Shown here piece by piece: positions 12,317 to 34,615 of a stretch of DNA of 42,914 nucleotides. Origin of the DNA: a virus (taxonomy: Duplodnaviria > Heunggongvirae > Uroviricota > Caudoviricetes); IMG/VR virus record IMGVR_UViG_3300014205_000186, positions 64,001 to 106,914 of that record. One strand, given 5' to 3'. A program made the translations under genes and the position numbers. The notes below the pieces were generated by a model. That model made no database searches. It saw nothing but the letters and a program-made list of their open reading frames with translations, and was not told the DNA's origin. Each line of letters begins with the position of its first letter. The stretch's first letter is position 1.

Positions 12317-13033
12317 TTATTTGTTAAGACCGGCAGCCAAAGCCCTTGCAACAGCTCTATAATCAGCCGTAGCAGTTATAGTAAGTTTACTAATTGCTAG
12401 ATTTATTGGTTCTCTCCATGTTTTAGCCCAAGTAGCATCGCTTCGTCTTAATAGTAATGTATCTTCAATTGCTCTAACAACTAAAGCTTTAGTAACAGAT
12501 AAACTTGGACACTCCCCTCTATTACACATAGCTTCAATATCTGAATCAGTTTTAAGAATAGCTAGAGCAAGAGCTTTAGCGGTTCCGCTATCTGCTAATT
12601 GAGAAGATAATTCATAAGATAATTGTTCAATCTTTTTTAGTTCTGGTACTGGAGTTGGATCTGGGTCCGGATCAGGTTTTGGGTCGGGATCTGGGTCAGG
12701 ATCTGGGTCAGGATCGGGAAGACTACCAGAAATAACTACTGTATGGGTTACATAACCAATATCGGCTTCTTTATCAGCTACTATTAAACCAAAGGTATAT
12801 GAACCAGCTTTACCAGAAGCAAATGCTAATTGTCCTGGACCAGTATTTCCACAAGCAATACTTTGAATACCTTCTGGCATTACCCATTTATGTCCATCTC
12901 CTACACTTTTACTGCCGTCTAATACAATTAAGTCACCAGGACTACCTTGTTTAGGACCATCAATTATTGCTACCGCATCTGCAAAAACAGGAGTAACTAA
13001 TAAAGCTAGAATCAGTAATATTTTTAAGCCCAT
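12317..13033 (-). CDS. exported protein: PKD/Ig-like domain, (DP)n linker, helical domain
   Basis: Signal peptide ending VFA, GDLIVLDGSKS (PKD/REJ-like), Asp-Pro linker. Confidence 0.65.
   Translation of the reverse strand: MGLKILLILALLVTPVFADAVAIIDGPKQGSPGDLIVLDGSKSVGDGHKWVMPEGIQSIACGNTGPGQLAFASGKAGSYTFGLIVADKEADIGYVTHTVVISGSLPDPDPDPDPDPDPKPDPDPDPTPVPELKKIEQLSYELSSQLADSGTAKALALAILKTDSDIEAMCNRGECPSLSVTKALVVRAIEDTLLLRRSDATWAKTWREPINLAISKLTITATADYRAVARALAAGLNK
12645..12720 (-). repeat. (Asp-Pro)n low-complexity linker
   Basis: PDPDPDPDPDPDPKPDPDPDPTPVP encoded by degenerate 6-bp units. Confidence 0.9.
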
Positions 13034-13959
13034 GATAACGCCCTCTTTTCAATCCAAGTAAGAATATTTTCCACTTTAATAAAACCATTACCAAATCTAT
13101 TATCTTTACCAATAGGTCCAGCATCTTTAATAAAATCTTCAGAAGATAACCAAGTCATAAGTTCTCTTGAGGTCATCTTAGTTGAATAGCCCATTTGTCG
13201 TAATACTTGTCTAAGCAAACCAAAAACGCTTGCAATAGTTGGGCAAGACATTGATGTTCCTGACATAGATATCAATTCTATTTCGCTACGAATTCCACAA
13301 GAAATAATCCCTACACCACCAGCAATAAGATCAACTGCTGGACCACCACTTGAAAAACCGGCGGGATTTCCACTACTATCTGATGCTGCAACAGCTATAT
13401 TATAAGGAGATAAAGCTGGAGATATTACAGTATTAGATCCGTTATAACCAGAATTACCAGCAGAAAAAAAGCACCACTTACCAGAACTTTCAATTCTTTT
13501 AAGAGCCGCAGTAGTTCCAGAATCTACAGATCCTCCACCACCCCACGAACAGCTAACAATATCACCAAGTTGTTGAGCTGCAATATCAAGTCCGGCAATA
13601 GTATTTCCACCGCTACCATTGTCTCCAAGAACTTTAACAACTTTAAAATTTGCTTCTGGACAAGAAGATAAACCGTCTCTTCCACAATTACTACCAATAG
13701 TATGACTACCATGCCCATGTCTGTCAGTTACATCTGAAGATGAACCTCCGGTAACATTAGCACTAAATAATGGTTCTGGTAATAATGAGTGCTTTTTATA
13801 ACCCGTATCTAGATTAATAAATATTATTTCACGGCCAGTAATACCAGCAGCATTAATCTTTTTAATTCGTTCGTCAACAGTCCAAGGGCGATCCCCTGGA
13901 GCAAGAGAAATCATTTCTATTTTAGTATCTGGAGGGATACCATAAATTGGTTGTTTCAT
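13024..13959 (-). CDS. S8 subtilisin-like serine protease
   Basis: Triad motifs LDTG, HGHGSH, GTSMSCP and oxyanion motif SAGNSG; no obvious signal peptide or long prodomain. Confidence 0.92.
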   Translation of the reverse strand: MKQPIYGIPPDTKIEMISLAPGDRPWTVDERIKKINAAGITGREIIFINLDTGYKKHSLLPEPLFSANVTGGSSSDVTDRHGHGSHTIGSNCGRDGLSSCPEANFKVVKVLGDNGSGGNTIAGLDIAAQQLGDIVSCSWGGGGSVDSGTTAALKRIESSGKWCFFSAGNSGYNGSNTVISPALSPYNIAVAASDSSGNPAGFSSGGPAVDLIAGGVGIISCGIRSEIELISMSGTSMSCPTIASVFGLLRQVLRQMGYSTKMTSRELMTWLSSEDFIKDAGPIGKDNRFGNGFIKVENILTWIEKRALSWA

Positions 13960-17693: not shown

Positions 17694-18311
17694 TTAAAGA
17701 TATTCAACGGAAAAATATCCCGCCGTAAGTTTCGAACCAGTGCTACTTGGACTTTGGGAGATACAAATATAAAAATCATGCTGAGTAGAACTTGTGCTCG
17801 GGCCGTTTGGACGAAGCCCTGATACCCCTGGGGAGTCAATTAAAGATAATATACTACCAGATCCGTAAATATTTGTCCAACTAGCTAATCCACTACCTAG
17901 ACTTCCGGTTTGGGTTGTACTAGGATGAATAGTTTCGTAAGCCATGCAAACAACACCGCTTGGATTATTATTTATATTATTTCTATCATAACACCTGAAT
18001 CTAGCATTCTGAGTAGTAACAGCAGATCCATGATTAAAAGAAACTTTTAAAGTTGCTAAATAATTAGGTATATCAAGAACATTTTTAGAAGTTAAACCAT
18101 TAATAGAACCAGAAGCTGGATGTGTATATTTTACGTTGTTTACTTGTGGGCCTTGGAAAAGACCATTACTATCGGTGATCCAAGTGGAATCTTGATAAGA
18201 ACCAACATTAACACTCTGGCCAAAAGTTGCTCCATAAAACCCTAACCCGCTACCATTCAAACCAACATTATTAATAGCTAAATCGTTAGCTGAAAAAGAA
18301 ATTGTTGCCAT
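17694..18311 (-). CDS. putative virion structural protein (Ser/Gly/Asn-rich, beta-type)
   Basis: Composition, low-GC3 codon usage in the gene body like the tail tube gene, own copy of the upstream motif. Confidence 0.6.
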   Translation of the reverse strand: MATISFSANDLAINNVGLNGSGLGFYGATFGQSVNVGSYQDSTWITDSNGLFQGPQVNNVKYTHPASGSINGLTSKNVLDIPNYLATLKVSFNHGSAVTTQNARFRCYDRNNINNNPSGVVCMAYETIHPSTTQTGSLGSGLASWTNIYGSGSILSLIDSPGVSGLRPNGPSTSSTQHDFYICISQSPSSTGSKLTAGYFSVEYL

Positions 18312-18378: not shown

Positions 18379-18813
18379 TTAATTCAACCATAGTTTAGTA
18401 GCTTCTTCAATAGAAATCTCTGTTTTATCTAACTTTTTATTAACCAAATTATGTAATTTAACACCAGATTCAAAAAACCCCTTTTGGTTTGAAAAATCCA
18501 TAGGAGAAGATTCTAATAATATCTTTGTATGATTTCTACATTCTCCACATGGTAATTTTTTAAGCCAATTCTCAAACCATTCTTTTGTTTCTTGTTCTGA
18601 CTTATACTGGTAGGTATGTAGTAATTTCCAAAGGTTTCTTGAATATTCTATTCTAGGATCTACTGATTTCGCCTTATTTTGGTTTTGATGAAAATCTGGA
18701 ATAGTAGGTGGAATAAAATCTTCACCAGTATAAACTGTTACAGATTCTCCGACCATAGAGCATAAACAGATTGCATTATCAGGAATTTTTCTTCCACATT
18801 TACAAGTTGTCAA
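18379..18813 (-). CDS. Erv1/Alr-family FAD-dependent sulfhydryl oxidase
   Basis: LWKLLHT, LPCGECRNH (CxxC), LHNLVNKKL are the three hallmark motifs. A TTG start gives an N-terminal CKC...CLC; an alternative ATG at 18756 would omit it. Confidence 0.88.
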   Translation of the reverse strand: MTTCKCGRKIPDNAICLCSMVGESVTVYTGEDFIPPTIPDFHQNQNKAKSVDPRIEYSRNLWKLLHTYQYKSEQETKEWFENWLKKLPCGECRNHTKILLESSPMDFSNQKGFFESGVKLHNLVNKKLDKTEISIEEATKLWLN

Positions 18814-20050
18814 AATAAGCCCTATGTGTTCCTCTTGATATTAATCCATCATATCTAGTATATCTACCTACTAAAACTCTTCCACACCAAGGTGGTCTAT
18901 AAGCTAAAGTATATTGATCGTCGCTTTGGTCTTCATATTTTTGAGGCGTTGCATAAATTGCAGAAGCTCCACAATTTGGCTCAGAAAATAAATATGTACA
19001 GGTTCCGGATTCCTCATCTACTACCCCTGTAATATGATTTGTATAAACAAAATGATAGCTAGTAATTTTCATTGTTGGAACTAAGAAATTAAAATAATAC
19101 TCTACGTTATAAGTTTTTACATAACTACTATATGCCGTAACTACCCCTGTATAAAGATTTCTAAACGAAGTTGTACCAGATTTTCTATATATTCCTGCTC
19201 CAGCGTCTATTCTGGGTATACTGTTATATGTTATACTATTACGGGATATATCACAGGTTGGAATATATAAAGGAAGAATAAAAGTTTGATTAAATACTGA
19301 TAAATTAGTTAATTCTTCAAGTTCATAATAAATAGTTCCACCATATGGATCATCATCAGTAGTACGCTCCCAGCTTATATCATTAAAATTATTAAATTCA
19401 TAAACTAATGAGTTCTTAGTAAACATACATTCAGGAGTTAATTCAACATAACATCTTGGACCACATTTATTATCTTTTTCAATATATACATAAGGTACAC
19501 TACCAAGATTATAATAAGTTTCAATAATTTCCGGATCTGAATTTTGAGCATCTAAAAAGTTAAAATAAGTGGTTACCTTTATTTTCCCTGTTTCACAATC
19601 AATTATCATATTACCAGAACAAAGTAGCCAATTACAATAAGCGTCTTGAACAGAAGTTCCACAGGCGTTTGTAGCTTCAATAGTATAGTAATAGTTATAA
19701 AAAGCATCATATCCAGAAAAAGTCCAAGCCCAATCTAATACAGTATTAATCTCTCCGGAAATATCTCCTGATTCTATTATTAAATAATCTCCGTAAGTAT
19801 ATCTTAAAGCAGATGTCTCAGCTCTAGAAGTAGAATATATAAATCTTCCATCTTCCCAAACAATACTTACAACAGGTTTTCCAGAACCATCTTCTGGACA
19901 ACATAAACAATCTCCTTGAAAACATCCTAAATCAGACATTACTAAATTAGGAACACCTAATAAAGAGTCTCCTTCCATAGCTATAATTGGCTGTGAAAAT
20001 GGACTAGGAATACTAGGAGATACTATTCTAAATAGATTTGGAGCTGTCAT
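18800..20050 (-). CDS. Cys-rich putative tail-tip/virion protein
   Basis: 15 Cys in 416 aa (e.g. CFQGDCLCC), Tyr/Thr-rich; start at 20050 forms a TAATG overlap with the upstream tail gene. Confidence 0.6.
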   Translation of the reverse strand: MTAPNLFRIVSPSIPSPFSQPIIAMEGDSLLGVPNLVMSDLGCFQGDCLCCPEDGSGKPVVSIVWEDGRFIYSTSRAETSALRYTYGDYLIIESGDISGEINTVLDWAWTFSGYDAFYNYYYTIEATNACGTSVQDAYCNWLLCSGNMIIDCETGKIKVTTYFNFLDAQNSDPEIIETYYNLGSVPYVYIEKDNKCGPRCYVELTPECMFTKNSLVYEFNNFNDISWERTTDDDPYGGTIYYELEELTNLSVFNQTFILPLYIPTCDISRNSITYNSIPRIDAGAGIYRKSGTTSFRNLYTGVVTAYSSYVKTYNVEYYFNFLVPTMKITSYHFVYTNHITGVVDEESGTCTYLFSEPNCGASAIYATPQKYEDQSDDQYTLAYRPPWCGRVLVGRYTRYDGLISRGTHRAYFDNL

Positions 20051-23000
20051 TATAATGTTCCAGAACATCCTCTAGCGGTAAACCAAGTTAACCATTGACC
20101 AGATCCTAGAGAAACTTTATCATATTCGAATAACAAATAATCTCCGCTAGGAGTAATTCTTAAATCTCTAATATAACCACTTGGACCTCCACCGGCAACC
20201 CAAACACCTCTTGATTCATCCCATCTAGTATCTAATGGACCAACCTTCCAGTCTTTGGGATTATTAATATCTTCTGGAACCATTTCTCCATTAATATCAT
20301 ATCCCCAACCAGCTAAAACCATAGGAGATTTTAAAGCCATGCTTCTATAAACTTCAATTTCTCCACTTGTATTACTTATATTAATATCTTTATGACCACT
20401 TGCTCCAGCGCCATGAACAATAACCCCAAGATTATCTTTTACAGCGTTTTTAAAAGGGTTTAATTGCTCAACACTTTCAGGTACTCCACTAGTATTCAAA
20501 AAATGAGGCATATAATCGCCAGAATAATTTGTATCAGTTGTAAAAGGTGTAAACAAAGTATCTAAGCTACAACCAGCAATAGATTCCCAATCTTCTGAAT
20601 CTAGAACTCTAGGAGTCTCATAAAATGGCATTGAAGCAGTATTATATTTAACGTTTCCGCTTCCGTATGTACTTGACATAATCATCTGGTGTGGGCTATT
20701 AGGATTCTTTTTTCTTGATTTGTTATTAAGACCTAAGAAAGATCCGAATCTAACAGTTTTTAATGGTTGATTAGGTTTCTTAGCATTTTTTCTAATAGCT
20801 TCTCTTCTTAAAACATGCATCTTTTTGAATTGTTCTATTCTATGCATAGTTTGATCTGAAAATCTTTGTGACCATTTATCCATTCTATAAACAGTTGTTA
20901 CGCCACCTTCTCCAACACTTGTATTAATTTGTGTAATAACTGGTCCACCGGCAAAAATTTGATGAGCAATACTAAAAATAGGAGATCCTGGAAACTCTAC
21001 TGAACCAGATTCACCTATCATAGAATTAACAGTAACATCTCTTACTCTAGCTGTTCCGGCATCATTCATTTGGGAAAAACCGCCATAATTCCAAGGGGTT
21101 AATTCTATATCTTGTTCAAATTCAACTTTACCCTGTGATCCTTGAGTATACCAAGGGCCATATGTTACAAGATTATTTCTAAGTGGAATAGCAGCCATTT
21201 GTGGAATTAAACCAAGTTTAGATAAATCTATATCATAACTTGAAGCACCAGCTTGAGTTCTCCATCTTTGAAAATCTCTTTCAGCCTGAGCATGATGAGC
21301 TACTGGTTGAGCATCTATATAACCTTGTTGTAAAACATGTAAGACACCACTAGCATAATGACTATATTTAACTCTACCAGGAAGAGTAATAACAGCTCTA
21401 GGAGAAAAAGCTGTATTTTTATTTAAGAAAACTAATTCTTTATCAACACCACATTTAACAAACATGTATTGTCCCTGAATATAATAATCATCTTCACTTA
21501 ATTCTCCAAGATCTAAATCAGCAACAGTAAAGGGGCCAAATCTTACATAGGCTACTAATTTATTGTTTTCATCTAAAGCAAAATACGGATAGTTTGGAAC
21601 TAATCCTTGATTAATAGCTTGACCAATTAAAGATTCTTCAATATATCCAGAATCAGCAGGTTCTAAACTAGTTGTAATAGAATAGTCTTCATTTCTCTTT
21701 GCTAAAACAAAAGGAATTCTAACCATAAATTTTTTATCAAGATATTCTCTAGCAAAAGTAGCAATATAATCATAAACTTTTTGTACTAAAAACGCATGGT
21801 TAGACTTAAGATAAATATCTCTTTCTAATTTAGCAAGATCTTTAACACCTAAATTATTAATATTATGATTTTGAAGCTTACTAGCATCAACATCTGGATC
21901 TTCGATAATTCTATCGTGTTTTCCATAATGAATACTAGATTTACGCAATTGCTTTTTAGCCTTTGAAAAGTTTTGTTCCTCTTCATCGGTTAATTTTTTA
22001 TGTTGCTGTAAAAACGTAGACCAAGCAGTATAAGATTCAATAGCTGCTCTTAATTCATATATATCAGTAGGATAATTATACCAATATTTTCCAGGCCAGC
22101 TTATTGGTTGACCATCAATATAAAAACTTTCATTAGAATTCTGAACAAATTCATTACTAAAAGAAACGGCTCTTTGAGCTAGATTAACATTTCCTTGTAA
22201 ATCTTTACCCCAATATCTAGCAATAGTATCATCATAAATAGGGTTTACAACTCCGCTACTACTTGTTCCTGTCACATTAGACTGATAATACATCTGTTCA
22301 ACTTGACCGCCAATTAAAAACTTATTAGCGGTAGTATATCTTAAATCAAACCCAGCTTCAGTACTAATATAATTTTGTTGTATTTGGGCTAGTAATCTAT
22401 AAATAGAACCATTTAGCCGTGGTATATTATTACTAACTGTAATGACACTAACATAATTTCCTATCATTATAACAGTAAAATCATGATTAGCTAAACTACA
22501 AATATCTTGAATAAAATCTAATAAAGAAATATTTGTTGAAGATATTCTATAATCATTTGGAACGTCTGGAAGCAAAGATAAATCAATAAAATATGGATAT
22601 CCCGCGAGATATACCGGGGTAATTTGATTTAATTGAGTAAAAGCATCTCTTATTAGTCTCCAAGGTATTCCTGCTTCATTAATTAGAGAATTTCCATAAC
22701 CAAAACTTTCAAGATATCCAAAAACGTTATATAAGTTAGGTACTGAATAAGTAAATCCAGTATATCCTCCTATAATTAATTCAACTCCGCTCAATAAATC
22801 TCTTGGATCAGAAATAGATACTTCCCAGCCCCTATTAATAGAATGAGATTTTACCTCTTTAATATTTGTTAAAATGCCATCGAAGATCCAACCGCTATAT
22901 TCAAATCTTCCAAGTTGACCTATAAAGCCATCGAACCTTTCAAATAAAGCGTCGTCTTCAACTAAGGATACATCTAAAACAGAGGCTTGATCTCCCCAGC

Positions 23001-23070
23001 CCATATTTAGATTAAAACTTCTGATTGAACAACCTAAAAAATGTTGTTGAATTGCTGCTTCATCTGGCAT
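20050..23070 (-). CDS. large tail-tip/hub (Tal-like) protein
   Basis: Third gene after the tape measure; N-terminal FDGIL...WEVSISDPR and ISLLDFIQDICS resemble tail hub folds. Confidence 0.6.
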   Translation of the reverse strand: MPDEAAIQQHFLGCSIRSFNLNMGWGDQASVLDVSLVEDDALFERFDGFIGQLGRFEYSGWIFDGILTNIKEVKSHSINRGWEVSISDPRDLLSGVELIIGGYTGFTYSVPNLYNVFGYLESFGYGNSLINEAGIPWRLIRDAFTQLNQITPVYLAGYPYFIDLSLLPDVPNDYRISSTNISLLDFIQDICSLANHDFTVIMIGNYVSVITVSNNIPRLNGSIYRLLAQIQQNYISTEAGFDLRYTTANKFLIGGQVEQMYYQSNVTGTSSSGVVNPIYDDTIARYWGKDLQGNVNLAQRAVSFSNEFVQNSNESFYIDGQPISWPGKYWYNYPTDIYELRAAIESYTAWSTFLQQHKKLTDEEEQNFSKAKKQLRKSSIHYGKHDRIIEDPDVDASKLQNHNINNLGVKDLAKLERDIYLKSNHAFLVQKVYDYIATFAREYLDKKFMVRIPFVLAKRNEDYSITTSLEPADSGYIEESLIGQAINQGLVPNYPYFALDENNKLVAYVRFGPFTVADLDLGELSEDDYYIQGQYMFVKCGVDKELVFLNKNTAFSPRAVITLPGRVKYSHYASGVLHVLQQGYIDAQPVAHHAQAERDFQRWRTQAGASSYDIDLSKLGLIPQMAAIPLRNNLVTYGPWYTQGSQGKVEFEQDIELTPWNYGGFSQMNDAGTARVRDVTVNSMIGESGSVEFPGSPIFSIAHQIFAGGPVITQINTSVGEGGVTTVYRMDKWSQRFSDQTMHRIEQFKKMHVLRREAIRKNAKKPNQPLKTVRFGSFLGLNNKSRKKNPNSPHQMIMSSTYGSGNVKYNTASMPFYETPRVLDSEDWESIAGCSLDTLFTPFTTDTNYSGDYMPHFLNTSGVPESVEQLNPFKNAVKDNLGVIVHGAGASGHKDINISNTSGEIEVYRSMALKSPMVLAGWGYDINGEMVPEDINNPKDWKVGPLDTRWDESRGVWVAGGGPSGYIRDLRITPSGDYLLFEYDKVSLGSGQWLTWFTARGCSGTL

Positions 23071-24521
23071 TATTCATATATCCAAGTAACGTTATAAGAA
23101 GCTGATCCAGTTAATGGTTCCCAGTTTTCTTGTGGTTGTTGTCTAAAAGATTTATTAGCACCATTATTAATAGGATCTAATTGATAAACTAATCCAGAAA
23201 CTAAATATTCTGGAAAATCAAAAGTTATATCTCCGGATGGAGGACCAAGAAGAAAATCAATAGTTAAGCTTTTTTGTTTCTCTGGACCTGTTCCTAAATC
23301 TTGTAATACTGGACCCCTGTAAGGGCTGCTTCTTCCTATTACCGGAACTATTGCTACGCTATAACCTTCTTTTTGATAAGAAACAGAAATTCTTTCTGAT
23401 AAAGCTCCGCTAATATAACTTGTTCTTCTGTTATCATAATTATAGGAATAAGAAATATTACCCTGTAAAGGATTTCTACCAACATTAGTACTAAGTGGTA
23501 AAGGATTTAATGTTGTTCCGGTATATAATTGTGCTCTAGATAAGAAACTATTAGATATTGAAGAAAAATATCCAGAAGCAGCATCCCATTTATGTCCGCT
23601 AACATTATTTAAAACTCTTGATTCTAATCCTTGAATATTTCCAGCAACTTCAACAGAAGTAATACCATCTAAAGCAGATTGACTAGAAACAGAATAATCT
23701 TCTATTATATTACCGCTAGAAAAAACCCAGCTTTCATTTACTGAATAAGAAGCCGCTGTTTCATCTATATTTTCTGTTAGAATATGATTATAAGCACCTA
23801 AAGTGGATAGATTATTAAATCCCGAAAATATAGTATTACTAATTCCAGTTCTAGACGCTATCCAGTTTTTAGCTTCCATAAAAGGATGATTTAATATTCC
23901 ACTATTATAAGAAGCTTTTCCCGTAGCAGATAAACTATGTGTAACTCTGTAAGTAAAAGGAGTAGTGGCTGCTAGAGAAGCAATGGGTCCAGGAACGAAA
24001 GAAGTTGTTCCAAGAGGTTGTTCGTTAGGTTCTATTGACCAAGATTCTACCGCTGATTCTAAGTTATAGTTTAAAGAGCCATCAACATTAGGATAAATTC
24101 TATCCGTAACCATTGATATTGAATATTCACAAGTATTAAACCACGGCCCTTCTTGAAATACTATTTCTACACTAGCTGGGAAAAAATGTAAAGTAGTTCC
24201 AAGATCTTCTGGGATAACCTCGAATTTCTTACCTATATTATCTTTATTAAAAATCTGCCTAAGAGCTTCTTGTTTTTTAAGAATACTAGATAATCTTTCG
24301 GAATCTGCTATATTTTCATCAGCAGGGTAATCATTTGTTGTCCAAAAAGTACCGCTAGAACTTGGAGATCCTTTATCAGCAAAAATAACACTAGAAAAAT
24401 TAACGTTATAAACTTGACCTATAATTCTTCCGTCTGGAGATTGTTCGAAATTTCTAGAATAGTTCAAACTAACAGCAGGAATTATTCTTTTACCATCATA
24501 AAGAACTTGTGTAGTACTCAT
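23070..24521 (-). CDS. minor tail protein (distal tail/Dit-like)
   Basis: Position in the tail module, beta-strand-rich alternating pattern, translational coupling. Confidence 0.55.
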   Translation of the reverse strand: MSTTQVLYDGKRIIPAVSLNYSRNFEQSPDGRIIGQVYNVNFSSVIFADKGSPSSSGTFWTTNDYPADENIADSERLSSILKKQEALRQIFNKDNIGKKFEVIPEDLGTTLHFFPASVEIVFQEGPWFNTCEYSISMVTDRIYPNVDGSLNYNLESAVESWSIEPNEQPLGTTSFVPGPIASLAATTPFTYRVTHSLSATGKASYNSGILNHPFMEAKNWIASRTGISNTIFSGFNNLSTLGAYNHILTENIDETAASYSVNESWVFSSGNIIEDYSVSSQSALDGITSVEVAGNIQGLESRVLNNVSGHKWDAASGYFSSISNSFLSRAQLYTGTTLNPLPLSTNVGRNPLQGNISYSYNYDNRRTSYISGALSERISVSYQKEGYSVAIVPVIGRSSPYRGPVLQDLGTGPEKQKSLTIDFLLGPPSGDITFDFPEYLVSGLVYQLDPINNGANKSFRQQPQENWEPLTGSASYNVTWIYE

Positions 24522-27500
24522 TATGAACCCTCTATAAACATATTAATATTGCCGCTTTGGCTATAAGCAGATGGTAAAAAGAAGTCTAATTGATATCTTG
24601 CGTTAGATTGAATATTTGGCATAAACATATTAAAATGACCATCAGTAGTAATATTACCTTCAACAAACAAATTAATAGAATCTTCTGTTTCTTCTGTTGA
24701 AGCATCTATATAAAGATTAATACTCCCTTCTGGATTAAATTCAGAGTTTATACTAAAACCAACAGAAGAGAAGACACCGTAAGCAGAATCTCCATAGTAA
24801 TACGGATAGCCATATTCATCATAATAAATGTTATCCCAGCCAATTTCAGAAAATAGAGATTGAAGAGATATATTAAATGATTCACTAGTTTCTTCTGGAG
24901 TGGTTCCTTCTATAAATAAATTAATATTACTAATATTTAATACTGGGCCACTAGAATATAAATCTAGATCATCAAAAGAAACCTGTCCACCAATTGTATT
25001 AAAGGTTATACCAGATTGCTGAATAATTGACCCATTAGTATAAAAGTTTACATAATTATTACTAGCATCTTGTCCCTTTAGGTAAAAATCTACACCACTA
25101 CTAGAAACAGCGTTATGAAGATAAAAATCTAAAGAATCATCTTGATAAGTGTATCCTTCTGTAACAAAAGATATTGGTTGAACACCTGTCTGGTTAATAT
25201 ACCAACCATTAAAAGACAAAAATACATCTTTAATAACTAGGTTATAATCATGATTAGAGTTATTATAAGAGTTAAGATTAAAGTTTATATAAGTTGGATA
25301 ATTAAAATCTGTTTGTGGTCTATTTCTATTAGCCGCATATGTAAACGGTTGAACTTCTAATAATCCAGAACCATTAGCTAAATGTGTTTGAAAATTTAAG
25401 GTGTTATCAAAATAAAATCCTACACCATTTGTTAAAAACCCCTCGTTATAGTAACCAGATAGATTTAAACCGGATGGATTATTGCTAACAAGTTCATAAT
25501 TAATATTTACTAAGTAGTTTTCTGGTCCAGTTAATAATGTATTGTAAGCAAAAATTGATGGACGATTTTCATATAAAGATTCTTTTTCAGCCATTGTTTC
25601 AAGATTAACAAAGAAGCTATCATTAATAACCTTGTTAATATTTTTAGATTCTAATTGAATATGGTTCCCGCTAGCCAAAACTTCGGAAAGATTAAATCTA
25701 GAAACATAAAGATTATTTATATCAGCGGCTTCTGAATAAGAATCAGAAATACCATATTCATGAATATATCCTTTAAAATCTGTTAAACCAGATCCACCAA
25801 TATATAGGTTACCAACTCCACCAGGAGCAACTGAAGATGAAGAATAAGCATTATAAAAGTCTATATCTCCAGTTGATATATAAACATCTACCTTATTTAA
25901 TGGCCCAAGTCTCTGACCGGTAATAATAATCATGCTATTTGGATAAGAATCTATATTAGCATAGTTATATGATCCAAAATTGTTTCTTGCGATAAAATTT
26001 AACTGTTCATCTTCTACAGATAATTTAAAATCTAGTGTTGTTCCGGTATATTTTTCTAATAAGGTAGCTCCATAAGAAGATTTTAAATAATTATAATTAC
26101 CACTTGTTGAGCAATGAAGCATAACAGTATAGTCATTTAAAGTATCTATACTTTCTACTATATTGTTATCTTGTTCTAAATATAGATAGTTTTTATAAGC
26201 TTTATTATGATATTGATACGAATCTATTTCCTCATTATAATAATTTGACCATACCGATGGATAATAGCTAATTGGAACACTATCACCAGAATTTAAAGGT
26301 TTATAAGCAATGTTGAAAAACTCGTTATCATAACCACTTTGCTTTATCCTGTTTCTTCCAGAATTAATAGAAAAGGAAGCTTTGGGATTAAGATTATTTA
26401 CTCTATTATTAACATGGGCCTGAATATTAAAACAAAGCATATCATCATTAGAACAATATAAGTCAATTTGAGCACTTGATATTTTAGTGTCTCTTGGAGG
26501 CTGATAAAGTCTAACAAAAAAGTTATCCATTAAGTCAGAAGTAGATAAATAACTGTTAGGTAATCCACTTCTTGAAAAAGATAGGTCGGAAGCTAATCTA
26601 GTAAAACCGCCCTGATTTTGAACATGAAAACCAGATCCAAAACCAACACAATTACTAAATTCATCCAGAAATAATCCTAAAGAACACCAATCTTGATTAT
26701 TACTAATATTACCAGAAGAGTTATTAGCTCTAATACTAAAGATACATTTATCTATAGTTCTTGTATTATTATTCTGATTAAATATTCCGCTAGTATTAAA
26801 ATAGAAATCTATGTAAGAATTATTATATAAATAACCACTTTCAGAAATAGAATTATTAACAGGGTTATATATCCATGTTCCATCAGCACCAGAAGTATTT
26901 GTTGGTCCAGCAACGAAAGAGGCATCTGAGTTATTTACTCCAGAATTATTAACTGCTCCTTCTACCAAACTAGGATAAAAAGAATAAATTTCTGGGGTTA
27001 AAGAATTATAAGAAGAATAAACTGATCCAGAAAAATTAATTTCTAATTGTCTTAGCTTATTATCTAAAGCTGGTGTTACATCAGATGGATTAACAGTTAC
27101 CTTAACAATATCATGTCTAATTTTTGTTTTAGTTAAGTCTTTATTTGTAACTAATGCGTTTAATTGACTAAAAGAAGGGGTAAAGTATCCTGATTGAGAT
27201 ACTTGATACTCCCCGTCAACTAATTCATATGGACCAGAAGTATTAAAAGTAGTGCTATATAGACTAACATTATTAATTTTTAAGTCAAAATCAAAATCAT
27301 ATTGAAATCCGCTTAAGAAAGATACTTTTGTGTAAACCTGTTCTGGTACAGTATTATTCTGATCAGGAATACAATAAAATTCTCTTAATCCCCCACTTTT
27401 AAAGTTAACATAACCAGAAGACTGATTAAGATTATGACAGACTCTATAATTTGCACTTGTCTGAGTACCAGTTTCATCTAAAACAAAACTACTAGCATTA

Positions 27501-27535
27501 TATAAAGAATCTTTAATAAGTCTTAATCTTGACAT
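24521..27535 (-). CDS. tail protein with LamG/concanavalin-like domain and C-terminal short repeats
   Basis: DYTVMLH...NLYIGG...FKGYIHEYGI is LamG-like; immediately downstream of the tape measure. Confidence 0.65.
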   Translation of the reverse strand: MSRLRLIKDSLYNASSFVLDETGTQTSANYRVCHNLNQSSGYVNFKSGGLREFYCIPDQNNTVPEQVYTKVSFLSGFQYDFDFDLKINNVSLYSTTFNTSGPYELVDGEYQVSQSGYFTPSFSQLNALVTNKDLTKTKIRHDIVKVTVNPSDVTPALDNKLRQLEINFSGSVYSSYNSLTPEIYSFYPSLVEGAVNNSGVNNSDASFVAGPTNTSGADGTWIYNPVNNSISESGYLYNNSYIDFYFNTSGIFNQNNNTRTIDKCIFSIRANNSSGNISNNQDWCSLGLFLDEFSNCVGFGSGFHVQNQGGFTRLASDLSFSRSGLPNSYLSTSDLMDNFFVRLYQPPRDTKISSAQIDLYCSNDDMLCFNIQAHVNNRVNNLNPKASFSINSGRNRIKQSGYDNEFFNIAYKPLNSGDSVPISYYPSVWSNYYNEEIDSYQYHNKAYKNYLYLEQDNNIVESIDTLNDYTVMLHCSTSGNYNYLKSSYGATLLEKYTGTTLDFKLSVEDEQLNFIARNNFGSYNYANIDSYPNSMIIITGQRLGPLNKVDVYISTGDIDFYNAYSSSSVAPGGVGNLYIGGSGLTDFKGYIHEYGISDSYSEAADINNLYVSRFNLSEVLASGNHIQLESKNINKVINDSFFVNLETMAEKESLYENRPSIFAYNTLLTGPENYLVNINYELVSNNPSGLNLSGYYNEGFLTNGVGFYFDNTLNFQTHLANGSGLLEVQPFTYAANRNRPQTDFNYPTYINFNLNSYNNSNHDYNLVIKDVFLSFNGWYINQTGVQPISFVTEGYTYQDDSLDFYLHNAVSSSGVDFYLKGQDASNNYVNFYTNGSIIQQSGITFNTIGGQVSFDDLDLYSSGPVLNISNINLFIEGTTPEETSESFNISLQSLFSEIGWDNIYYDEYGYPYYYGDSAYGVFSSVGFSINSEFNPEGSINLYIDASTEETEDSINLFVEGNITTDGHFNMFMPNIQSNARYQLDFFLPSAYSQSGNINMFIEGS

Positions 27536-30500
27536 TTAACCCTCGAAATTACCAAGATTAGGCATCTTTGTTTTAATTAGTTTATTAATACCGTTTTTAA
27601 TTTCGGATTGAATTAGAGCAGCAATTTCTGGTTTAATTTGAGTAAGTACTTGAGCACCATTAAGATAAACATCTACTCTATGTGTTCCGTTCATGGTAAT
27701 TTCAGTTGGTATCTTAGAAATAGCATCTCTCATATTTTGAATTTGAATACCAAGTTGATTCACGGCAAGGTTAAATTTAGAAACTACCTCTGTATCTATT
27801 ATAGGGTTACTTTGAACTAACCCGCCAGAAGCATATCTTTTTGCTCCGCTATTAGTTCTTTTTAGAGTTTGAATACCTATTTTTCTAACCGCTGGTTTAC
27901 TTAGAACAAATTCTCCAGGAGTCAATAAAGCGGGAATAGAATCGGTATTACCAAAACCAGGAACAATTCCTCCAGAATTTCTTCTAATTGGCATACGATT
28001 TACACCAGAATTTTTAAAAGTTGTATTTAAAGCTTCTAATTGACCTCTTAAATTATTAATTTCAGAGTTAAGACTTCCAATTGAAGTATCTTTAGGAAAA
28101 TCGTTTAAAGATTTAAGTAATATACTATCTTTAGATTCAACATCCTTAGAAATTGCTTCAAAGTTTTTGGTTCCGCCAACTTGAGAAATTAAACTAGTTC
28201 TTTTATCATTAGCTGATAATAATTTAGTAGTAGCTTCTCCTCTAATCTCTGTTAAAGATTTTTTAAGAACTTCAAAAGCTTTAGAAACAGCAATAGTACC
28301 ATCTTCTTTTCTTCCTATATCCCCTTTTTGTAAATCCTGTCTAACTTTATCTAGTTGGTCTGGAGATAAACTTTGTACTAAAGATCCAGCTCTTTTATCA
28401 AAATCAGAAATAGAAGATCTAACTGGTCCAGATAGTCTAGTAAATGAATCGTTTTCTTTTAGTGCTAAACCCTTTTCTCCTTCTAGTTTCTGTAATATTC
28501 CAGATACAACGTTTGGAACAGAACCAAACTTATTAATATCTTCGTTTACAGCTTTAATATCTGGAGCATTAACAAGAGCATTTTCTCCAAACCTACCAGT
28601 AATACCAGATAAACTATTTCTTTTTTGAATAGTATCTTGTAGTCTACCACTAGTGGTTCCAATTTGATTTCTAATATCTCTTGTTTGACCTTCAGCTAAA
28701 ATATTTTTAAGATCAGAGAAAAATGTTTGCATATCCTTATTTAGCTGTTGAGAAAACTGTTGTCTATCAGTAATAAGACTAGTATTAATAGCTTGCTGAG
28801 CTTCTTTCTGAGTATTTAATGAAGCTTCTATTTGAGCCTGAATACTGTTTTCTTGTTTACTTGGAGATCCGGTATTTTGAAAACCCTGTGGTAAACCAGT
28901 AGTATTATTAGCTATAGAATCTAATACTTCTTTTCCAGTTTTTCCAGATCCAACAACGCTATCAGCATATGTTTTCAGGAAAGATATAACATCCTTTTTT
29001 AGATCTTGTGGGGTTCCGCTTAAACTTCCTGTAGCCGCTGCTGATCTAGCACCGCGAACAGTACTTGATAATCTATTTTGTTCTTCTCCGGTACTACTAG
29101 CAAAATCTAAAGCAAAATCTCTCTTAGAAAGTCTTTCTGATTGTGCTCTATTTAATTGTTGTTGTAATATAGATAATTCAGAAGTAGTATTAGCTAAATA
29201 AGATAGAGCTGAAGTTGTCTTTTCTAGAGCTGATCTCTCATTCTCTAAAGCAACTTGAATTCTTGCTCTTAGTTGAATATCTTCAGTATCATTTAATTGA
29301 GTAGTTAATCCTTGAATATTACTTTTTCTTTGACTAACACCAGCTTGAAGTCTACCAACAGATAATCCACCAGTATTTATTCTGGTAATATCTCTTTCAT
29401 TAGCTAATAGCTGAGAATCAACATTTTTACCAGTAAAAGTACCTCTTGCTTGAATAAGTGAAGATCTATTTTGAGCTACTTTAGTTATTCCCTCTAAAAT
29501 AGTTTTATCGAATCCTCTTAGATTTTCCAAAGATGCTGAAAACTCATTTAATTTAGTTGTGGAAGTTTCATAAGCAGAAGAAATAGCATCTAAAGCTGGT
29601 TTAGTACCTTCTAATAATGTTTGTAGGGCTTTTTGCGGGTCTTTGCTTAAATTCTTGAAGAACTCTGGATCTTTATTGTCTGAACCAAGTAAGTCTTCAA
29701 CTCTTTGAATAATTAAATTACTTACTGATTTTCCTATACCAGCACTCTTTAAAGATTCGGCAAACCTTTCTGTAACAGCTCCGGTATCATCTAAAGCAGA
29801 ACCAGATCTTAAATTAGATAAGATATCTGGAAGTATATTACTTGCTTTTATAATATCTGAAGCAGTTTTACCAAGAGTCTTTCCGGCTTTTCCAAATTGA
29901 CCAGTAAAATCTAGTACTTGTTTTTCTAAACCCTTTGTACTAATTCCTGTTTCAACAATATCAAGAGCGGGAGATACACTATTTTTTAAACTAGTAGAAC
30001 CAGATGATCCAGAAGCAAAAGACTGTAAGTTACTAGTAAAAGTATTTACTCTTTGAGAAGCTATAGTAAAGGCTTCAGAGAATCTAAGAATAGACTTAAC
30101 ATTATTATCAAACTCTCTTATTGTTTTAACACCCTTTTGAAAAGCGTTATCAAACTCAGTAGCGGCTTTGATATCTTTTTCAATATTTTCTTTAAAGTCA
30201 GAAAAAGGAATACCAAGAATACCAGCAATCATTCTTTGAGTTCCGTCATCAACTCTTTGAGTGAAATTCTCATAGCTATTAGATATCTTTGATATATCTC
30301 CTACAAAGTTAGCTAGGTTTACTTTTTGATTACCTAATTCTCCTAGAATATTTTCTCTTATAGAAGGATCTGAAGTAGATTGTAGATTTCTTTGTAAATT
30401 CCGAACATTAGAAGTTACATCAAAAGCTGAAGTTTGAGAAGTGGTTTTTTCTTCTTTAATAGAATCAAAAATTTTACCAAGAGATTCTATAGACTTGTTA

Positions 30501-33500
30501 GAACTTACTGTAGCTAATTGATTATCAAATTCTTTTAATGAGCCTATTACCCCAGTAGTTGCTCCATAAACACCGCCTAAAGCTGCTCCAACAGCAGTAC
30601 CAATACCAGGAGCAATAAGAGTTCCTATACCAGCTCCAATAGCCCCAGCGCTAGACGCTCCACTAATAGCTCCGCCTAAAGCAAAACCAGATCTTGAACC
30701 TTGTTTAGTATCAGTTCTTTGAGAAGACTTCTTTATTTGGTCTCCAATAAAATCTCCTATAAATCCAGCAGCAATACCAATTCCTATACCAGAACCACCA
30801 CCTAATTTAGAAGAAAATTTAGAAAATCTATTTCTTGAAGGATTGTTAGGATCGCTTCCACCAGAGCCAAAAAGTCTTTCTCTTAATGGCGGTTTATTTG
30901 GTGGGCCACCGCTACCAATACCAAATAAAGATTTTACAGCACCATTTCTATTAGTTTGGTTTAATGAAGAATAACCAAAAGCACCAACTCCAGATCTTAC
31001 TATTGAGTTTGGAATAGCTCTTGGGTCTTGTAAATTAAATTTCTTAGCAATTCTAGAAGTAATAACTTGTTGATTAGCCGCAAATCTACTTCCTTCTATT
31101 TGACCAATTCTAGTAGCGCCTTGAGGAACACGTTGTAAACTTTCTAAATAAGAGCTTCTTTTTTGACTTTTAGCAATATCTTCTCTAATTAAATCTGGTT
31201 GCGTTGGCCCAATTTTATCTGAAACAAAACTGGTAGAAAGTGGAAAAAATCTAGCAAATCCTGAATCTTTTTGTTTTCCCCTAGCAACAACAGACGAAAA
31301 AGATTGAGCGAAAGTTTCTTCTCTACCTCTTTTATCAGCTTTGCCACCTTGGGTATAATACTTTAACGCCTCTCTTTGTTGTTTAGTTATATCTTTTCTT
31401 TTTCTAAGATTTTTAATATCCTGCTTTCTTCTTCTAGCAAATTCTTTATCGTCACTTAATTTTCCACCCTGACTAGTATAATCAAAAGCATGACCGAATT
31501 CATGTAAAGCTGTATCTGCTTGTTGGAGTCTTGGTCTTTGAGTAGAAACTACAACTCTTTTTTGATTTGGGTCATAAACACCTGGAACATTATCATAAGA
31601 AACTTTTTTAGACCCTTGGCTCATCTGTCCTTTAAGTTGCGGATAAACATCAGTAATTTTTTCAGCATTAACTCTAGTTACTCCAGCTTTTTCGAGCTGT
31701 TCTCTTACTTTTTGAGGTATTTTATTATAAACGTCTTCGTCTGATAATTTAGCAATTCCGTCAGGACTAGTAACTCTAGATAAAACTTTATTAAGTTCTT
31801 GTTTTTTTATAAGTTCTTCAAGAGCTTTACTAGAAGTTTTATTTGATAAGGCTCTACTATTTTTAAATACAGATTTTTCATTTTTTCTTGATAAAGCAAT
31901 TTTTTTAGTTTCATCTTGATCAAATAATCTTTGTAAAGCTGGTGTTCTATTATTATCTTGCGATAAAATTCTAGGACTATCAATAGTTTTTCTACTAAAA
32001 ATTTTAGAAGCAAATAAACTAGCTTTATCTAGTTCAGAACCGAAAGCTTTTACAGTACCAATAACAAATAATATTTGAGTTGCTAATCCAGCTAATCCTA
32101 TAACATTTTCTTTAGTAGTATCTTCAAGTTTACTAAACTCACCAAAAAGACCAGCATAAGAAGCTGCTGTAATACCAGCAACACCTAAACCAGTTTTACT
32201 AATAGACTTACCAACTAAACCACCAGCAGCAAACGCTGGAACAATTCCCTCATTAATCATATTAAGTCTAGATGGACCTAACTTTTTAGCAGCTCTTTTC
32301 TTAACAACAAACTCTCCAGGCATAGCAGCAATTAACTGACTATCTTTATTACCTATACCAGGAATGTATCCGCCATCCTTTTTAGCTAGAAAACTATCTT
32401 TAAAACCTTTAATAAATGGTCCAGAAGAAGAACCAATTTTAAGTGCTCCTAAGATTAAAAGTGGCTCAAGTAAATCTTTAAATGACGCGGCTAATTTAAT
32501 AGTAAATTTAGTTAGATCTAAAATATCTGTAATTAAAGACTTAATACTTTCATCTTGAGCAAATTCTCTAATCATTAACTGAAATTCTTCTCTGACCTTG
32601 GTTAACTGATTAGCATAACTTTCTTGAGCTATAGCAGCATCTTTTGTAAGGCTATCAGTTCCAGCAAGAGCTACTTGAATAGCGTTCTGAGAAACCTCAA
32701 AACTTCTTAATAGAGGAATAATTTTGTTGATCTGTCTAAAACCAGCTAATTCTTCAGCAATTTGAGCTATTCTAGGATCTGCTCCACCAATCTTAGCAGT
32801 TTCTTGAGAAATTCTTTTTAGTGCTTCAAAAGCCCCAACAAAGTCACCGGCTTTAAAATCTGGATTTCTACCAAATTGATCTTGAAATTCTCTTACTTCT
32901 TCTGCTGTTCTTCTAATATTAATTCCAAAGTCAGCTAAGAATTTACTAGTACTTAATCTTTGAAGTCTAGTAGTAATAGTACGAATACCAACCGCTACTG
33001 TATCAGCAGATTCTCTAGTAGTAGATCTTACAGTTGTAAACAAACCTATTAATTCATTAAGACTACCACCAGCAGAAGCAAAAGCACCACCAGCCTTTTG
33101 AATCGCGGTTGTAATATCTGAAGATTCTACAGCGAAAGCAGCAGAAACAGCATTAATACTGCTTAAGGTTGCGTCAAGATCACTTGTTTTAAGACCAAAC
33201 TGAGCCATAGCTGCTACAGCACCTTCAACAGTGTTTTCAATATTTTCGAAGGTTGCTGCTATTTCAGTTTTCGTTAATGCTTCAAGAGCTTCTCTAACTT
33301 GATGAGTTGAAAAACCAGCCTGAGCTAAAACTTGTGACGTATTTAAGATACTTAAAGACGAAACACCATATTTAGTAGCTAATCTACCTACTTCATCTCC
33401 TAAAGCTGCTGTATTTTCTACTGATTGTCCAGTAACCTGTCTAATTTTAGTAAGTTGTTTATCAAAATCTATAAACTCACTAATAGCATTTCTAATAGCA

Positions 33501-34615
33501 AAACTTAATCTAAAAAATCCAGCGGTTACTAAAGTATAAGCACCAAATCTTTTAAGGGTAATACCGCTCTGTAAACCAAGATCGTATAAAGCGTCTCTAG
33601 AACCTCTAATAGAACTAGTTAAAGTATTCTGAGCAGCAATAGAAGATTTACTAGATAGAGTCTTTATAGACTTTGCGGCAGCACTAATATTAGATAAATT
33701 AAGTCCGGATAATCCAGTTTGCAAAGAGCTAACAGCCGAAGCTAAAGCTCTAATAACACTATTGAATCCTATACCACTTGTTTTAGCCTTGTTAAAAGCT
33801 ATAGCAACTCTATTTAGGCCATCCTCTAATTTATCTACATTTTTAATATCTTTAAGAGATAGATCAAAGGTAATCTTTTTACCATTAATCTTACTTAAAG
33901 AAGCAATAGATTTAGCTATTAATCTTGTTCGAGAAGCAATAGAGTCAAATTGGGTAAGATTAAATCCAGAAACCTGTGAGTTTAAAGAAGAAACTGCTGT
34001 ATTTAATTTTTGAAAGTTATCTAAAGTACCCTTTCTTAGATTAAGACCTATACTAAGATTTTTACTTCGAAGATCTTTAATTAAATTAGCAACACGAACA
34101 ATTTCTTCATCGTTTATAGCTTGAACAGTAAACTTCATTGGGGAATTTAAACTAGTTTTAAGAGCATTAATCTCTTTATATACTTTTTTAATTTCCGCGT
34201 GTAACAAATCAGAATTAATACCAACGTTAGCGTTAATAGGCTTAGATTTTAAGCTTTGTTTAACGCTATTAATATTGGCTAGTATGTTTTTTGTAGCAGA
34301 TTCTATATTAGAAGAATCAAATCTAATCTTAAGAGGCTTGCCATCTAAACTTCTTTTAATAGAATTGATTTCTTTGTATACTGTTTTGATATCTTCTGGC
34401 TTGATTCTTAAACCAATATTTAATGGCTTATTTCTAAAACTTTTTTGTAAAGCTCCAACTTCTTTATAAACATTTTTAATATCAGAAGGATCTACATTAA
34501 GCTTAAGAGTACTTGGTTTTTTATTAATTCTCTGTTTTAAATCATCTACAGTAGACTCAATCTTAGAATCTAAAACTAATAAAAGCTCAGCCGTAATACC
34601 AAATTTATCAGCCAT
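27536..34615 (-). CDS. tail tape measure protein (TP901-type core) with accessory domains
   Basis: FDKQLTKIRQVTG...LAQAGFS TP901 core, glycine-zipper segment, two GG..PG.GN.DS..A...PGEFV motifs, position after the chaperones. Confidence 0.92.
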   Translation of the reverse strand: MADKFGITAELLLVLDSKIESTVDDLKQRINKKPSTLKLNVDPSDIKNVYKEVGALQKSFRNKPLNIGLRIKPEDIKTVYKEINSIKRSLDGKPLKIRFDSSNIESATKNILANINSVKQSLKSKPINANVGINSDLLHAEIKKVYKEINALKTSLNSPMKFTVQAINDEEIVRVANLIKDLRSKNLSIGLNLRKGTLDNFQKLNTAVSSLNSQVSGFNLTQFDSIASRTRLIAKSIASLSKINGKKITFDLSLKDIKNVDKLEDGLNRVAIAFNKAKTSGIGFNSVIRALASAVSSLQTGLSGLNLSNISAAAKSIKTLSSKSSIAAQNTLTSSIRGSRDALYDLGLQSGITLKRFGAYTLVTAGFFRLSFAIRNAISEFIDFDKQLTKIRQVTGQSVENTAALGDEVGRLATKYGVSSLSILNTSQVLAQAGFSTHQVREALEALTKTEIAATFENIENTVEGAVAAMAQFGLKTSDLDATLSSINAVSAAFAVESSDITTAIQKAGGAFASAGGSLNELIGLFTTVRSTTRESADTVAVGIRTITTRLQRLSTSKFLADFGINIRRTAEEVREFQDQFGRNPDFKAGDFVGAFEALKRISQETAKIGGADPRIAQIAEELAGFRQINKIIPLLRSFEVSQNAIQVALAGTDSLTKDAAIAQESYANQLTKVREEFQLMIREFAQDESIKSLITDILDLTKFTIKLAASFKDLLEPLLILGALKIGSSSGPFIKGFKDSFLAKKDGGYIPGIGNKDSQLIAAMPGEFVVKKRAAKKLGPSRLNMINEGIVPAFAAGGLVGKSISKTGLGVAGITAASYAGLFGEFSKLEDTTKENVIGLAGLATQILFVIGTVKAFGSELDKASLFASKIFSRKTIDSPRILSQDNNRTPALQRLFDQDETKKIALSRKNEKSVFKNSRALSNKTSSKALEELIKKQELNKVLSRVTSPDGIAKLSDEDVYNKIPQKVREQLEKAGVTRVNAEKITDVYPQLKGQMSQGSKKVSYDNVPGVYDPNQKRVVVSTQRPRLQQADTALHEFGHAFDYTSQGGKLSDDKEFARRRKQDIKNLRKRKDITKQQREALKYYTQGGKADKRGREETFAQSFSSVVARGKQKDSGFARFFPLSTSFVSDKIGPTQPDLIREDIAKSQKRSSYLESLQRVPQGATRIGQIEGSRFAANQQVITSRIAKKFNLQDPRAIPNSIVRSGVGAFGYSSLNQTNRNGAVKSLFGIGSGGPPNKPPLRERLFGSGGSDPNNPSRNRFSKFSSKLGGGSGIGIGIAAGFIGDFIGDQIKKSSQRTDTKQGSRSGFALGGAISGASSAGAIGAGIGTLIAPGIGTAVGAALGGVYGATTGVIGSLKEFDNQLATVSSNKSIESLGKIFDSIKEEKTTSQTSAFDVTSNVRNLQRNLQSTSDPSIRENILGELGNQKVNLANFVGDISKISNSYENFTQRVDDGTQRMIAGILGIPFSDFKENIEKDIKAATEFDNAFQKGVKTIREFDNNVKSILRFSEAFTIASQRVNTFTSNLQSFASGSSGSTSLKNSVSPALDIVETGISTKGLEKQVLDFTGQFGKAGKTLGKTASDIIKASNILPDILSNLRSGSALDDTGAVTERFAESLKSAGIGKSVSNLIIQRVEDLLGSDNKDPEFFKNLSKDPQKALQTLLEGTKPALDAISSAYETSTTKLNEFSASLENLRGFDKTILEGITKVAQNRSSLIQARGTFTGKNVDSQLLANERDITRINTGGLSVGRLQAGVSQRKSNIQGLTTQLNDTEDIQLRARIQVALENERSALEKTTSALSYLANTTSELSILQQQLNRAQSERLSKRDFALDFASSTGEEQNRLSSTVRGARSAAATGSLSGTPQDLKKDVISFLKTYADSVVGSGKTGKEVLDSIANNTTGLPQGFQNTGSPSKQENSIQAQIEASLNTQKEAQQAINTSLITDRQQFSQQLNKDMQTFFSDLKNILAEGQTRDIRNQIGTTSGRLQDTIQKRNSLSGITGRFGENALVNAPDIKAVNEDINKFGSVPNVVSGILQKLEGEKGLALKENDSFTRLSGPVRSSISDFDKRAGSLVQSLSPDQLDKVRQDLQKGDIGRKEDGTIAVSKAFEVLKKSLTEIRGEATTKLLSANDKRTSLISQVGGTKNFEAISKDVESKDSILLKSLNDFPKDTSIGSLNSEINNLRGQLEALNTTFKNSGVNRMPIRRNSGGIVPGFGNTDSIPALLTPGEFVLSKPAVRKIGIQTLKRTNSGAKRYASGGLVQSNPIIDTEVVSKFNLAVNQLGIQIQNMRDAISKIPTEITMNGTHRVDVYLNGAQVLTQIKPEIAALIQSEIKNGINKLIKTKMPNLGNFEG
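31270..31740 (-). other. ATLF/PPEP-like zincin metalloprotease domain inside the tape measure protein
   Basis: VPGVYD, ALHEFGHAFD (HExxH at 31490-31504), LSDDKEF, YYT, EETFAQSF. Confidence 0.8.

Follow-up and report, generated by a model that had tools for sequence, protein, structure and literature searches.

How might a tailed bacteriophage, whose particles assemble in the reducing cytoplasm of a bacterium, come to build a structural protein rich in cysteine together with an enzyme suited to oxidizing it? This question is raised by the final 42.9 kb of a phage record in IMG/VR that is 106.9 kb long (IMGVR_UViG_3300014205_000186; approximately 69% complete, approximately 30% G+C). The stretch of DNA analyzed here, positions 64,001 to 106,914 of that record and 42,914 nucleotides (nt) in length, is referred to as the window. 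Within it, a gene for a 144-amino acid (aa) protein of the Erv/ALR sulfhydryl oxidase family (18379..18813, TTG start) overlaps the end of a gene for a Cys-rich 416-aa protein (18800..20050); both genes, like all window features given below, lie on the minus strand. Oxidases of the Erv/ALR type are a well-known enzyme kind of eukaryotes and of the large DNA viruses that infect them. Textbook disulfide formation in bacteria takes place in the periplasm and relies on DsbA and DsbB, whereas phage particles are put together in the cytoplasm, which is reducing. Cryo-electron microscopy has nevertheless recently revealed phage tails and whole virions that are stitched together by disulfides, though the route by which these bonds are made is not known. 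The preliminary description of this DNA considered a phage-encoded pathway of this kind not known to be characterized in tailed phages; our literature search returned no description of an Erv oxidase in a bacteriophage, and a 2026 paper likewise states that phages have no described machinery dedicated to forming disulfides (PMC13576161). Our analysis leads us to consider it reasonably probable that the Erv oxidase docks on the Cys-rich protein, a putative component of the tail end, and oxidizes it in the bacterial cytoplasm.

That the 144-aa protein belongs to the Erv family is close to certain, as sequence and fold agree by every criterion applied. The protein matches the Evr1_Alr profile (PF04777) with an E-value of 4.9e-12 and 46.5 bits, against a cut-off of 27.6, over profile positions 1-92 of 93, and a six-frame search of the genome gives 47.2 bits at the same site. 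A two-sequence profile compared with the sequences of the PDB retrieved African swine fever virus (ASFV) pB119L (3gwl, 9e-11), AtErv1 (2hj3), Erv2 (1jr8) and ALR. An AlphaFold (AF2) model calculated from 19 family members has a predicted local distance difference test score (pLDDT) of 81, rising above 90 in the helices of residues 53-142, and comprises five helices (53-67, 73-86, 91-102, 110-127 and 135-142), in keeping with the Erv fold of a four-helix bundle and an additional fifth helix. The top 24 Foldseek matches of this model in the PDB are all Erv-family structures at probability 1.00, with a root-mean-square deviation (rmsd) of 1.6-2.8 Å for most, and matches at that probability are exclusively to the ALR, AtErv1, pB119L and Erv2 family. 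The best superposition is on pB119L (rmsd 1.6-1.8 Å, template modeling (TM) score 0.77).

The compact Erv/Alr domain and the three motifs named in the preliminary description are all present. The predicted five-helix FAD (flavin adenine dinucleotide)-binding core, delimited by the model helices and the invariant residues, spans residues 53-144 (18382..18657) and contains the W62-K-L-L-H66-T motif in helix 1 (18613-18630), the C89-G-E-C92 motif just before helix 91-102 (18538-18549) and the H121-N-L-V-N125 motif in helix 4 (18439-18453). The C89-G-E-C92 motif aligns with the CxxC of 3gwl, 2hj3 and 1jr8. Across the 19-member family alignment W62, H66, C92, H121, N122, V124, N125, L128 and K130 are invariant, and W142 is retained in the close set of relatives. 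From published Erv structures, we take the Trp and His of helix 1, the H-N-x-V-N motif and Lys of helix 4, and the aromatic residue of helix 5 to be the FAD contacts, and the protein would be expected, on the strength of its sequence, to bind FAD and to act as a sulfhydryl oxidase. Its N-terminus reads as polar, without a hydrophobic stretch, so that the earlier statement that it carries no signal peptide stands.

One relative extends the picture of how this domain is arranged. In P0011 (L052:8001-8900), a tandem protein of 299 aa, two Erv domains are present, of which the second keeps the W-LH and HNLVN motifs and has zero Cys. This protein could be read as a fused pseudo-dimer with a single active site, and it hints at a dimer-like Erv unit. 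The tandem gene overlaps by 4 nt a preceding gene for a 421-aa, 27-Cys protein (L052:6739-8004), just upstream of which are two small genes with 6% Cys.

The 416-aa protein encoded upstream of the Erv gene in the window stands out in its Cys content. In a Cys census of the whole record it has 15 Cys, or 3.6%, against a record mean of 1.74%; nearly all presumed virion genes of the record have 0-1.3% Cys, with one exception, a 183-aa open reading frame at 1.6%, and the neighboring structural proteins have 0-0.9%. These cysteines are also the best-kept residues of the protein. Over ten homologs with 23-52% identity, Cys is conserved at 94%, compared with 69% for Gly, the next best residue type, and 13% for His, of which the protein has only three, and exactly 15 Cys are found in all nine close homologs. 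The model of the 416-aa protein (pLDDT 77) is all-beta, with two immunoglobulin (Ig)-like sandwiches and a long beta-meander, and matches nothing well enough for a fold family to be assigned: Foldseek gave TM scores of 0.2 or less against the PDB and BFVD, the Atlas search gave TM scores below 0.3, and VIA-align gave Z-scores of 7.5 or less, comprising Ig-like and beta-meander matches, among which were weak similarities to fragments of phage baseplates and spikes. Neither PHROGs nor NCBIfam has a family for it. Its place as the final large gene of the tail module points to a distal tail or receptor-binding protein, and we presume it to be both the substrate and the partner of the Erv protein.

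The physical connection between the two genes was read directly from the DNA. The TTG start codon of the Erv gene is at 18813 and the TAA stop codon of the 416-aa gene at 18800-18802, giving the overlap with the stop of a 15-Cys virion-type protein that had been noted earlier and that amounts to 14 nt (18800..18813). The choice of start codon is consistent with the closest relative, L040, which has ATG exactly where the window has TTG, and with conservation of the Erv protein that begins at codon 1. Upstream, the ATG of the 416-aa gene, which is consistent with the N-termini of homologs, overlaps the TAA of the 1006-aa gene before it by 1 nt. The 14-nt overlap implies that translation of the Erv gene may be coupled to that of the Cys-rich gene.

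The pairing of these genes recurs in related genomes. An exhaustive profile search, with 3,496 Erv hits at E below 0.001, yielded a small family that shares the full Erv length, including the N-terminal region, and the contigs of ten members were read, in which Erv identity is 30-54% and G+C ranges from 28% to 62%. Judged by the longest related contigs, genomes of this lineage are approximately 180 kb. Wherever a contig extends far enough, the tape measure is followed by a protein of about 1000 aa, one of about 480 aa, one of 1000-1120 aa, one of 400-530 aa, Erv, and a protein of 203-205 aa, in that order. The Erv start overlaps the end of the upstream gene in all ten contigs, mostly by 14 nt, but by 4 nt in three loci and by 1 nt in L049. 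The upstream gene, when complete, encodes 15-27 Cys (3.3-6.4%), while its neighbors are mostly at 0-1%; the C-terminal 192 residues of the one partial copy are 2.1% Cys, equal to the figure for the matching portion of the window's protein. A Cys-rich gene thus lies upstream of Erv in 10 of 10 relatives, as compared with 3 of 35 other viral Erv loci, a rough baseline drawn mostly from metagenome-assembled genomes (MAGs) of giant viruses and scored for an upstream gene on the same strand that has at least 3.3% Cys. The linkage to Cys-rich tail genes that the preliminary description put forward for testing therefore holds among the homologs. Elsewhere among viral Erv loci, a 74-kb IMG/VR contig has a 140-aa Erv gene (L005:8001-8261) that follows, after a 3-nt gap, a gene for a 521-aa protein with 38 Cys (7.3%), and two giant-virus MAG loci (L029 and L036) have genes with 9-10% Cys directly upstream of Erv.

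Beyond the linkage, the two proteins are predicted to bind one another. The complex of Erv with the 416-aa protein scored 0.67 (runs of 0.65, 0.67 and 0.69), while controls gave 0.00-0.01, the best of them 0.01; contact agreement among the runs was at least 86% and the partner pLDDT at least 76. The mark used for this score was attained by 58 of the 80 solved complexes and by 2 of the 110 mismatched pairs in the calibration, counts that are only rough here because the job was run with unpaired custom alignments. It is unlikely that the score reflects recall of a solved complex, as we know of no similar one. On the Erv side the predicted interface comprises residues 4-39, which include the Cys arm and the V-Y strand, and residues 85-90, the loop that bears C89. 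On the partner side it would involve residues 255-261 and 268-279 and adjoin C196, C208, C266 and C389. The partner stretches coincide with the most conserved non-Cys motifs of that protein (N254, P260, L261, Y262, I273 and Y275). Together, these predictions support binding of Erv to the 416-aa protein.

The N-terminal arm of Erv (residues 1-50; 18664..18813) is delineated by the family alignment and the models, and carries C4-x-C6, C16-x-C18 and the conserved V-Y strand. Its Cys are kept across the family, although some relatives miss one of the four, and their arrangement on a small hairpin, in which CxC or CxxC precedes a CxC, is zinc-knuckle-like. Modeled alone, the arm is poorly ordered (pLDDT 50-65). 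Because the predicted interface includes residues 4-39, it looks like a docking arm. Its four Cys may perhaps serve as an electron shuttle, as in Erv1 and Erv2, as a zinc site, or as both. The suggestion made earlier, that a CKC/CLC arm could be a shuttle disulfide, is thus borne out as to the presence of C4-K-C6 and C16-L-C18, but shuttling is just one of two readings, and it is docking that the models predict.

Taken together, these observations lead us to propose the following mechanism. The 144-aa protein would be an FAD-dependent Erv/ALR sulfhydryl oxidase that works in the cytoplasm and is made late, together with the translationally coupled 416-aa tail-end protein. Its flexible N-terminal arm would dock on the partner through strand addition at the surface where that protein is most conserved, and this docking would place the C89-x-x-C92 active site beside the substrate cysteines. 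Electrons would then pass from the substrate thiols to the CxxC, on to FAD and finally to O2, yielding H2O2, and disulfides would enter the tail protein while it is in the reducing cytoplasm of the bacterium, either ahead of tail assembly or in the course of it. Both the disulfides of the 416-aa protein and the cytoplasmic location of Erv are features that we infer. The central idea of the preliminary description, a phage that oxidizes its own tail protein in the bacterial cytoplasm, is in this way supported computationally by linkage, by conserved Cys and by predicted binding. We regard as evenly balanced the more specific proposal of a self-contained, relay-free and substrate-tethered system, in which Erv clamps a single client, the tail-end adhesin, by means of its arm, oxidizes it in the cytoplasm and may stay with it into the virion.

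Whether such a system needs further redox proteins bears on how far it resembles those of giant viruses. In the 107-kb record, approximately 69% of the genome, we found no cytoplasmic thioredoxin relay and no glutaredoxin. The sole thioredoxin-fold gene of the record (11095-11478, minus strand; 127 aa, PF00085) encodes a WCAPC motif and a hydrophobic, signal-like N-terminus, and given that N-terminus the protein is probably exported; we rejected it as a cytoplasmic relay partner of Erv on the same grounds. A 133-kb relative also has a thioredoxin-fold gene. An exported thioredoxin suggests that the phage also handles envelope thiols. As no relay was found, the arrangement resembles, in contrast to the three-protein chain of vaccinia virus, a system of one enzyme and one client, with the caveat that about one-third of the genome is absent from the record. 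The comparison with a giant-virus assembly pathway drawn in the preliminary description consequently holds for the oxidase itself, which is giant-virus-like, but does not extend to a relay of the A2.5L/G4L type.

Several observations weigh against this proposal. Five family members (P0010, P0042, P0044, P0125 and P0134) have C-x-C in place of CxxC, within P-x-x-x-C-x-C, which may affect their competence as oxidases, though one Erv of this type (L048:8001-8435) still overlaps an upstream 24-Cys gene. Fifteen is an odd number of cysteines and leaves at least one of them unpaired, while the N-terminal cluster of the 416-aa protein, C43-x4-C48-x-C50-C51, could be a metal site and the four arm Cys of Erv are potential metal ligands as well. 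The tail-protein label of the 416-aa product comes only from its position, and the unpaired alignments temper the complex score. Finally, the relay partner was not found in the 107-kb record, and the bacterial cytoplasm contains strong thiol reductases that would oppose Erv.

Some of these same observations are the starting point of the alternative that survives best, which we nonetheless consider unlikely, namely that Erv serves chiefly as an assembly chaperone or adaptor without a redox role and that the Cys of the partner and of the arm bind metal or self-oxidize in oxic water after lysis. The Erv gene is placed exactly where fiber chaperones usually are, the arm is predicted to bind stably, the arm hairpin resembles a zinc knuckle, and the partner has both an odd Cys count and a four-Cys N-terminal cluster. 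However, CxxC or CxC and all of the flavin-contact residues are invariant across the family, and an adaptor alone would have no need of them. The tandem P0011 makes a similar point, its second domain having lost the Cys that it did not need while one intact site was retained, and the near absence and lack of conservation of His in the partner (3 His, 13%) speak against metal binding there. Slightly less likely again, in our judgment, is that Erv is a general oxidase of several phage or host proteins, acting for example by shifting the host thiol balance or disabling thioredoxin-dependent functions, so that its adjacency to the 416-aa gene would reflect mere co-expression. Many dithiols are oxidized in vitro by Erv1, Erv2 and ALR, and several non-structural phage proteins have 4-7% Cys; yet the overlapping pair is kept in all ten related contigs, down to approximately 31% identity, while the surrounding genes change, and an interface specific to the neighbor is predicted where controls stay at 0.00-0.01. 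That Erv instead travels in the virion, bound to the tail tip, and during infection targets thiols or disulfides in the envelope or receptor of the host is improbable, for although stable docking onto a tail-end protein is predicted, vaccinia E10R is virion-associated and the exported-looking thioredoxin suggests an interest in envelope redox chemistry, the conserved Cys of the partner would be left unexplained. Oxidation of the 416-aa protein by a docked Erv thus remains the reading that we prefer.

The genes around this pair place it within a tail module, which is marked by the match of a 2359-aa protein without cysteine (27536..34615) to the tape measure family PF10145 (75.8 bits) and to several tape-measure PHROGs. 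The tape measure is 2284-2520 aa in relatives, and its size implies a very long tail. Proceeding along the minus strand, it is followed by genes for proteins of 1004, 483, 1006, 416, 144 and 205 aa and then by a homing-endonuclease gene. The three large genes that separate the tape measure from the Cys-rich gene (20050..27535), identified by position and synteny, are Cys-poor (0.2-0.8% in the census) and without a family match in Pfam, PHROGs or NCBIfam; their products are presumed to be distal tail or baseplate proteins by position and conserved order. The 205-aa gene (17694..18311), conserved in synteny, begins 67 nt after Erv, and its product likewise has no match in Pfam, PHROG or NCBIfam; Atlas feature searches with the 1006-aa and 205-aa proteins returned only unnamed phage (Uroviricota) clusters. 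The presence of this gene after Erv, both here and in every relative that reaches far enough, corrects the earlier view that Erv ends the tail-tip operon. A promoter and terminator scan performed no better than chance. Two homing-endonuclease genes are situated within the structural module or next to it: directly past the tail genes is that of a 641-aa DUF7487 and DUF559 protein (15724-17649, minus strand; phrog_3339), which one relative also has, and the other encodes a 287-aa LAGLIDADG-type endonuclease (36498-37361, minus strand). Farther along from the tail module, on its downstream side, the window has a subtilase (Peptidase_S8; 13024-13959, minus strand), and three relatives have a papain-like Peptidase_C1 at a similar place (L040:7284-8171, L044:12490-13368 and L051:10272-11153), which may represent a swap of protease type inside one cassette.

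As to where the phage Erv came from, a FastTree phylogeny (197 Erv domains, 94 columns) lacked resolution and placed the window protein in no supported clade, and we accordingly make no claim on the origin of the gene or on its transfer from giant viruses or eukaryotes. PHROGs and NCBIfam have no family for the Erv protein. A tblastn search with Erv against 50,697 deposited phage records returned only the giant virus Mollyvirus (8e-4), and blastn of the region returned nothing. When 185,579 prokaryote genomes were scanned with a pattern for the close Erv family, none matched, hence no prophage or clue to the host, and an IMG/VR scan for Erv produced mostly giant-virus MAGs and did not return the close family. 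What is new here is an Erv lineage with a conserved N-terminal arm, together with a controlled prediction that this arm docks on a client. If a phage Erv is indeed wired to its own Cys-rich tail protein, it would provide a mechanism for disulfides in phages and extend a hallmark of giant viruses to the viruses of bacteria, and the de novo formation of disulfides in the bacterial cytoplasm would represent a so far undescribed phage assembly strategy. A very small oxidase of 144 aa that is targeted to its substrate could, moreover, become a tool for the production of disulfide proteins in the bacterial cytoplasm.

Comparison with known systems helps to place these findings. ASFV pB119L (PDB 3GWL) is the closest counterpart, being the best PDB match of the phage Erv in sequence and superposition at 26% identity, and it likewise is a minimal Erv core of approximately 100 residues with one CxxC, a late product of a virus that assembles in reducing cytoplasm. 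It differs, however, in belonging to a eukaryotic virus and in lacking the four-Cys N-terminal arm of the phage protein, and its partner is reportedly a separate CxxC protein, pA151R, rather than the product of an adjacent structural gene. The vaccinia E10R-A2.5L-G4L pathway also begins with a virus-encoded Erv oxidase without a signal peptide and introduces disulfides into virion proteins within the cytoplasm, as the phage enzyme would do, but there two relay proteins serve several membrane proteins, whereas the prediction for the phage Erv is direct docking on a single dedicated substrate; against PF04805 (Pox_E10) it scores 13 bits, below the cut-off. Mimivirus R596 is an Erv oxidase that reportedly has its shuttle disulfide in an unusual motif (PMC3509050). 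Like the phage protein, R596 and baculovirus P33 (Ac92) are viral Erv oxidases that carry extra parts, but they are much weaker matches (R596, 3gwn, E 0.043; Ac92, Foldseek E 1.4), their extra domains are different and they belong to eukaryotic viruses. The cellular enzymes Erv1/ALR and Erv2 share with the phage protein the Pfam family, the fold, the flavin-adjacent CxxC and the flavin-contact motifs. They typically carry a Cys pair on a flexible arm, CxxC in Erv1 and CxC in Erv2; they reside in the mitochondrial intermembrane space or the endoplasmic reticulum, act with Mia40 or PDI as partners and have a structural CX16C disulfide. The phage protein, in contrast, has only six Cys, no CX16C pair and two Cys pairs in its arm, and the span from W62 to its CxxC is presumably shorter than that of ALR. 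To the chaperones Tfa of phage lambda and gp38/gp57A of T4 the likeness is one of layout only, in that a small gene directly follows a distal tail or fiber gene and its product binds the protein so encoded and aids its maturation; they have neither sequence or fold relation to Erv nor redox chemistry.

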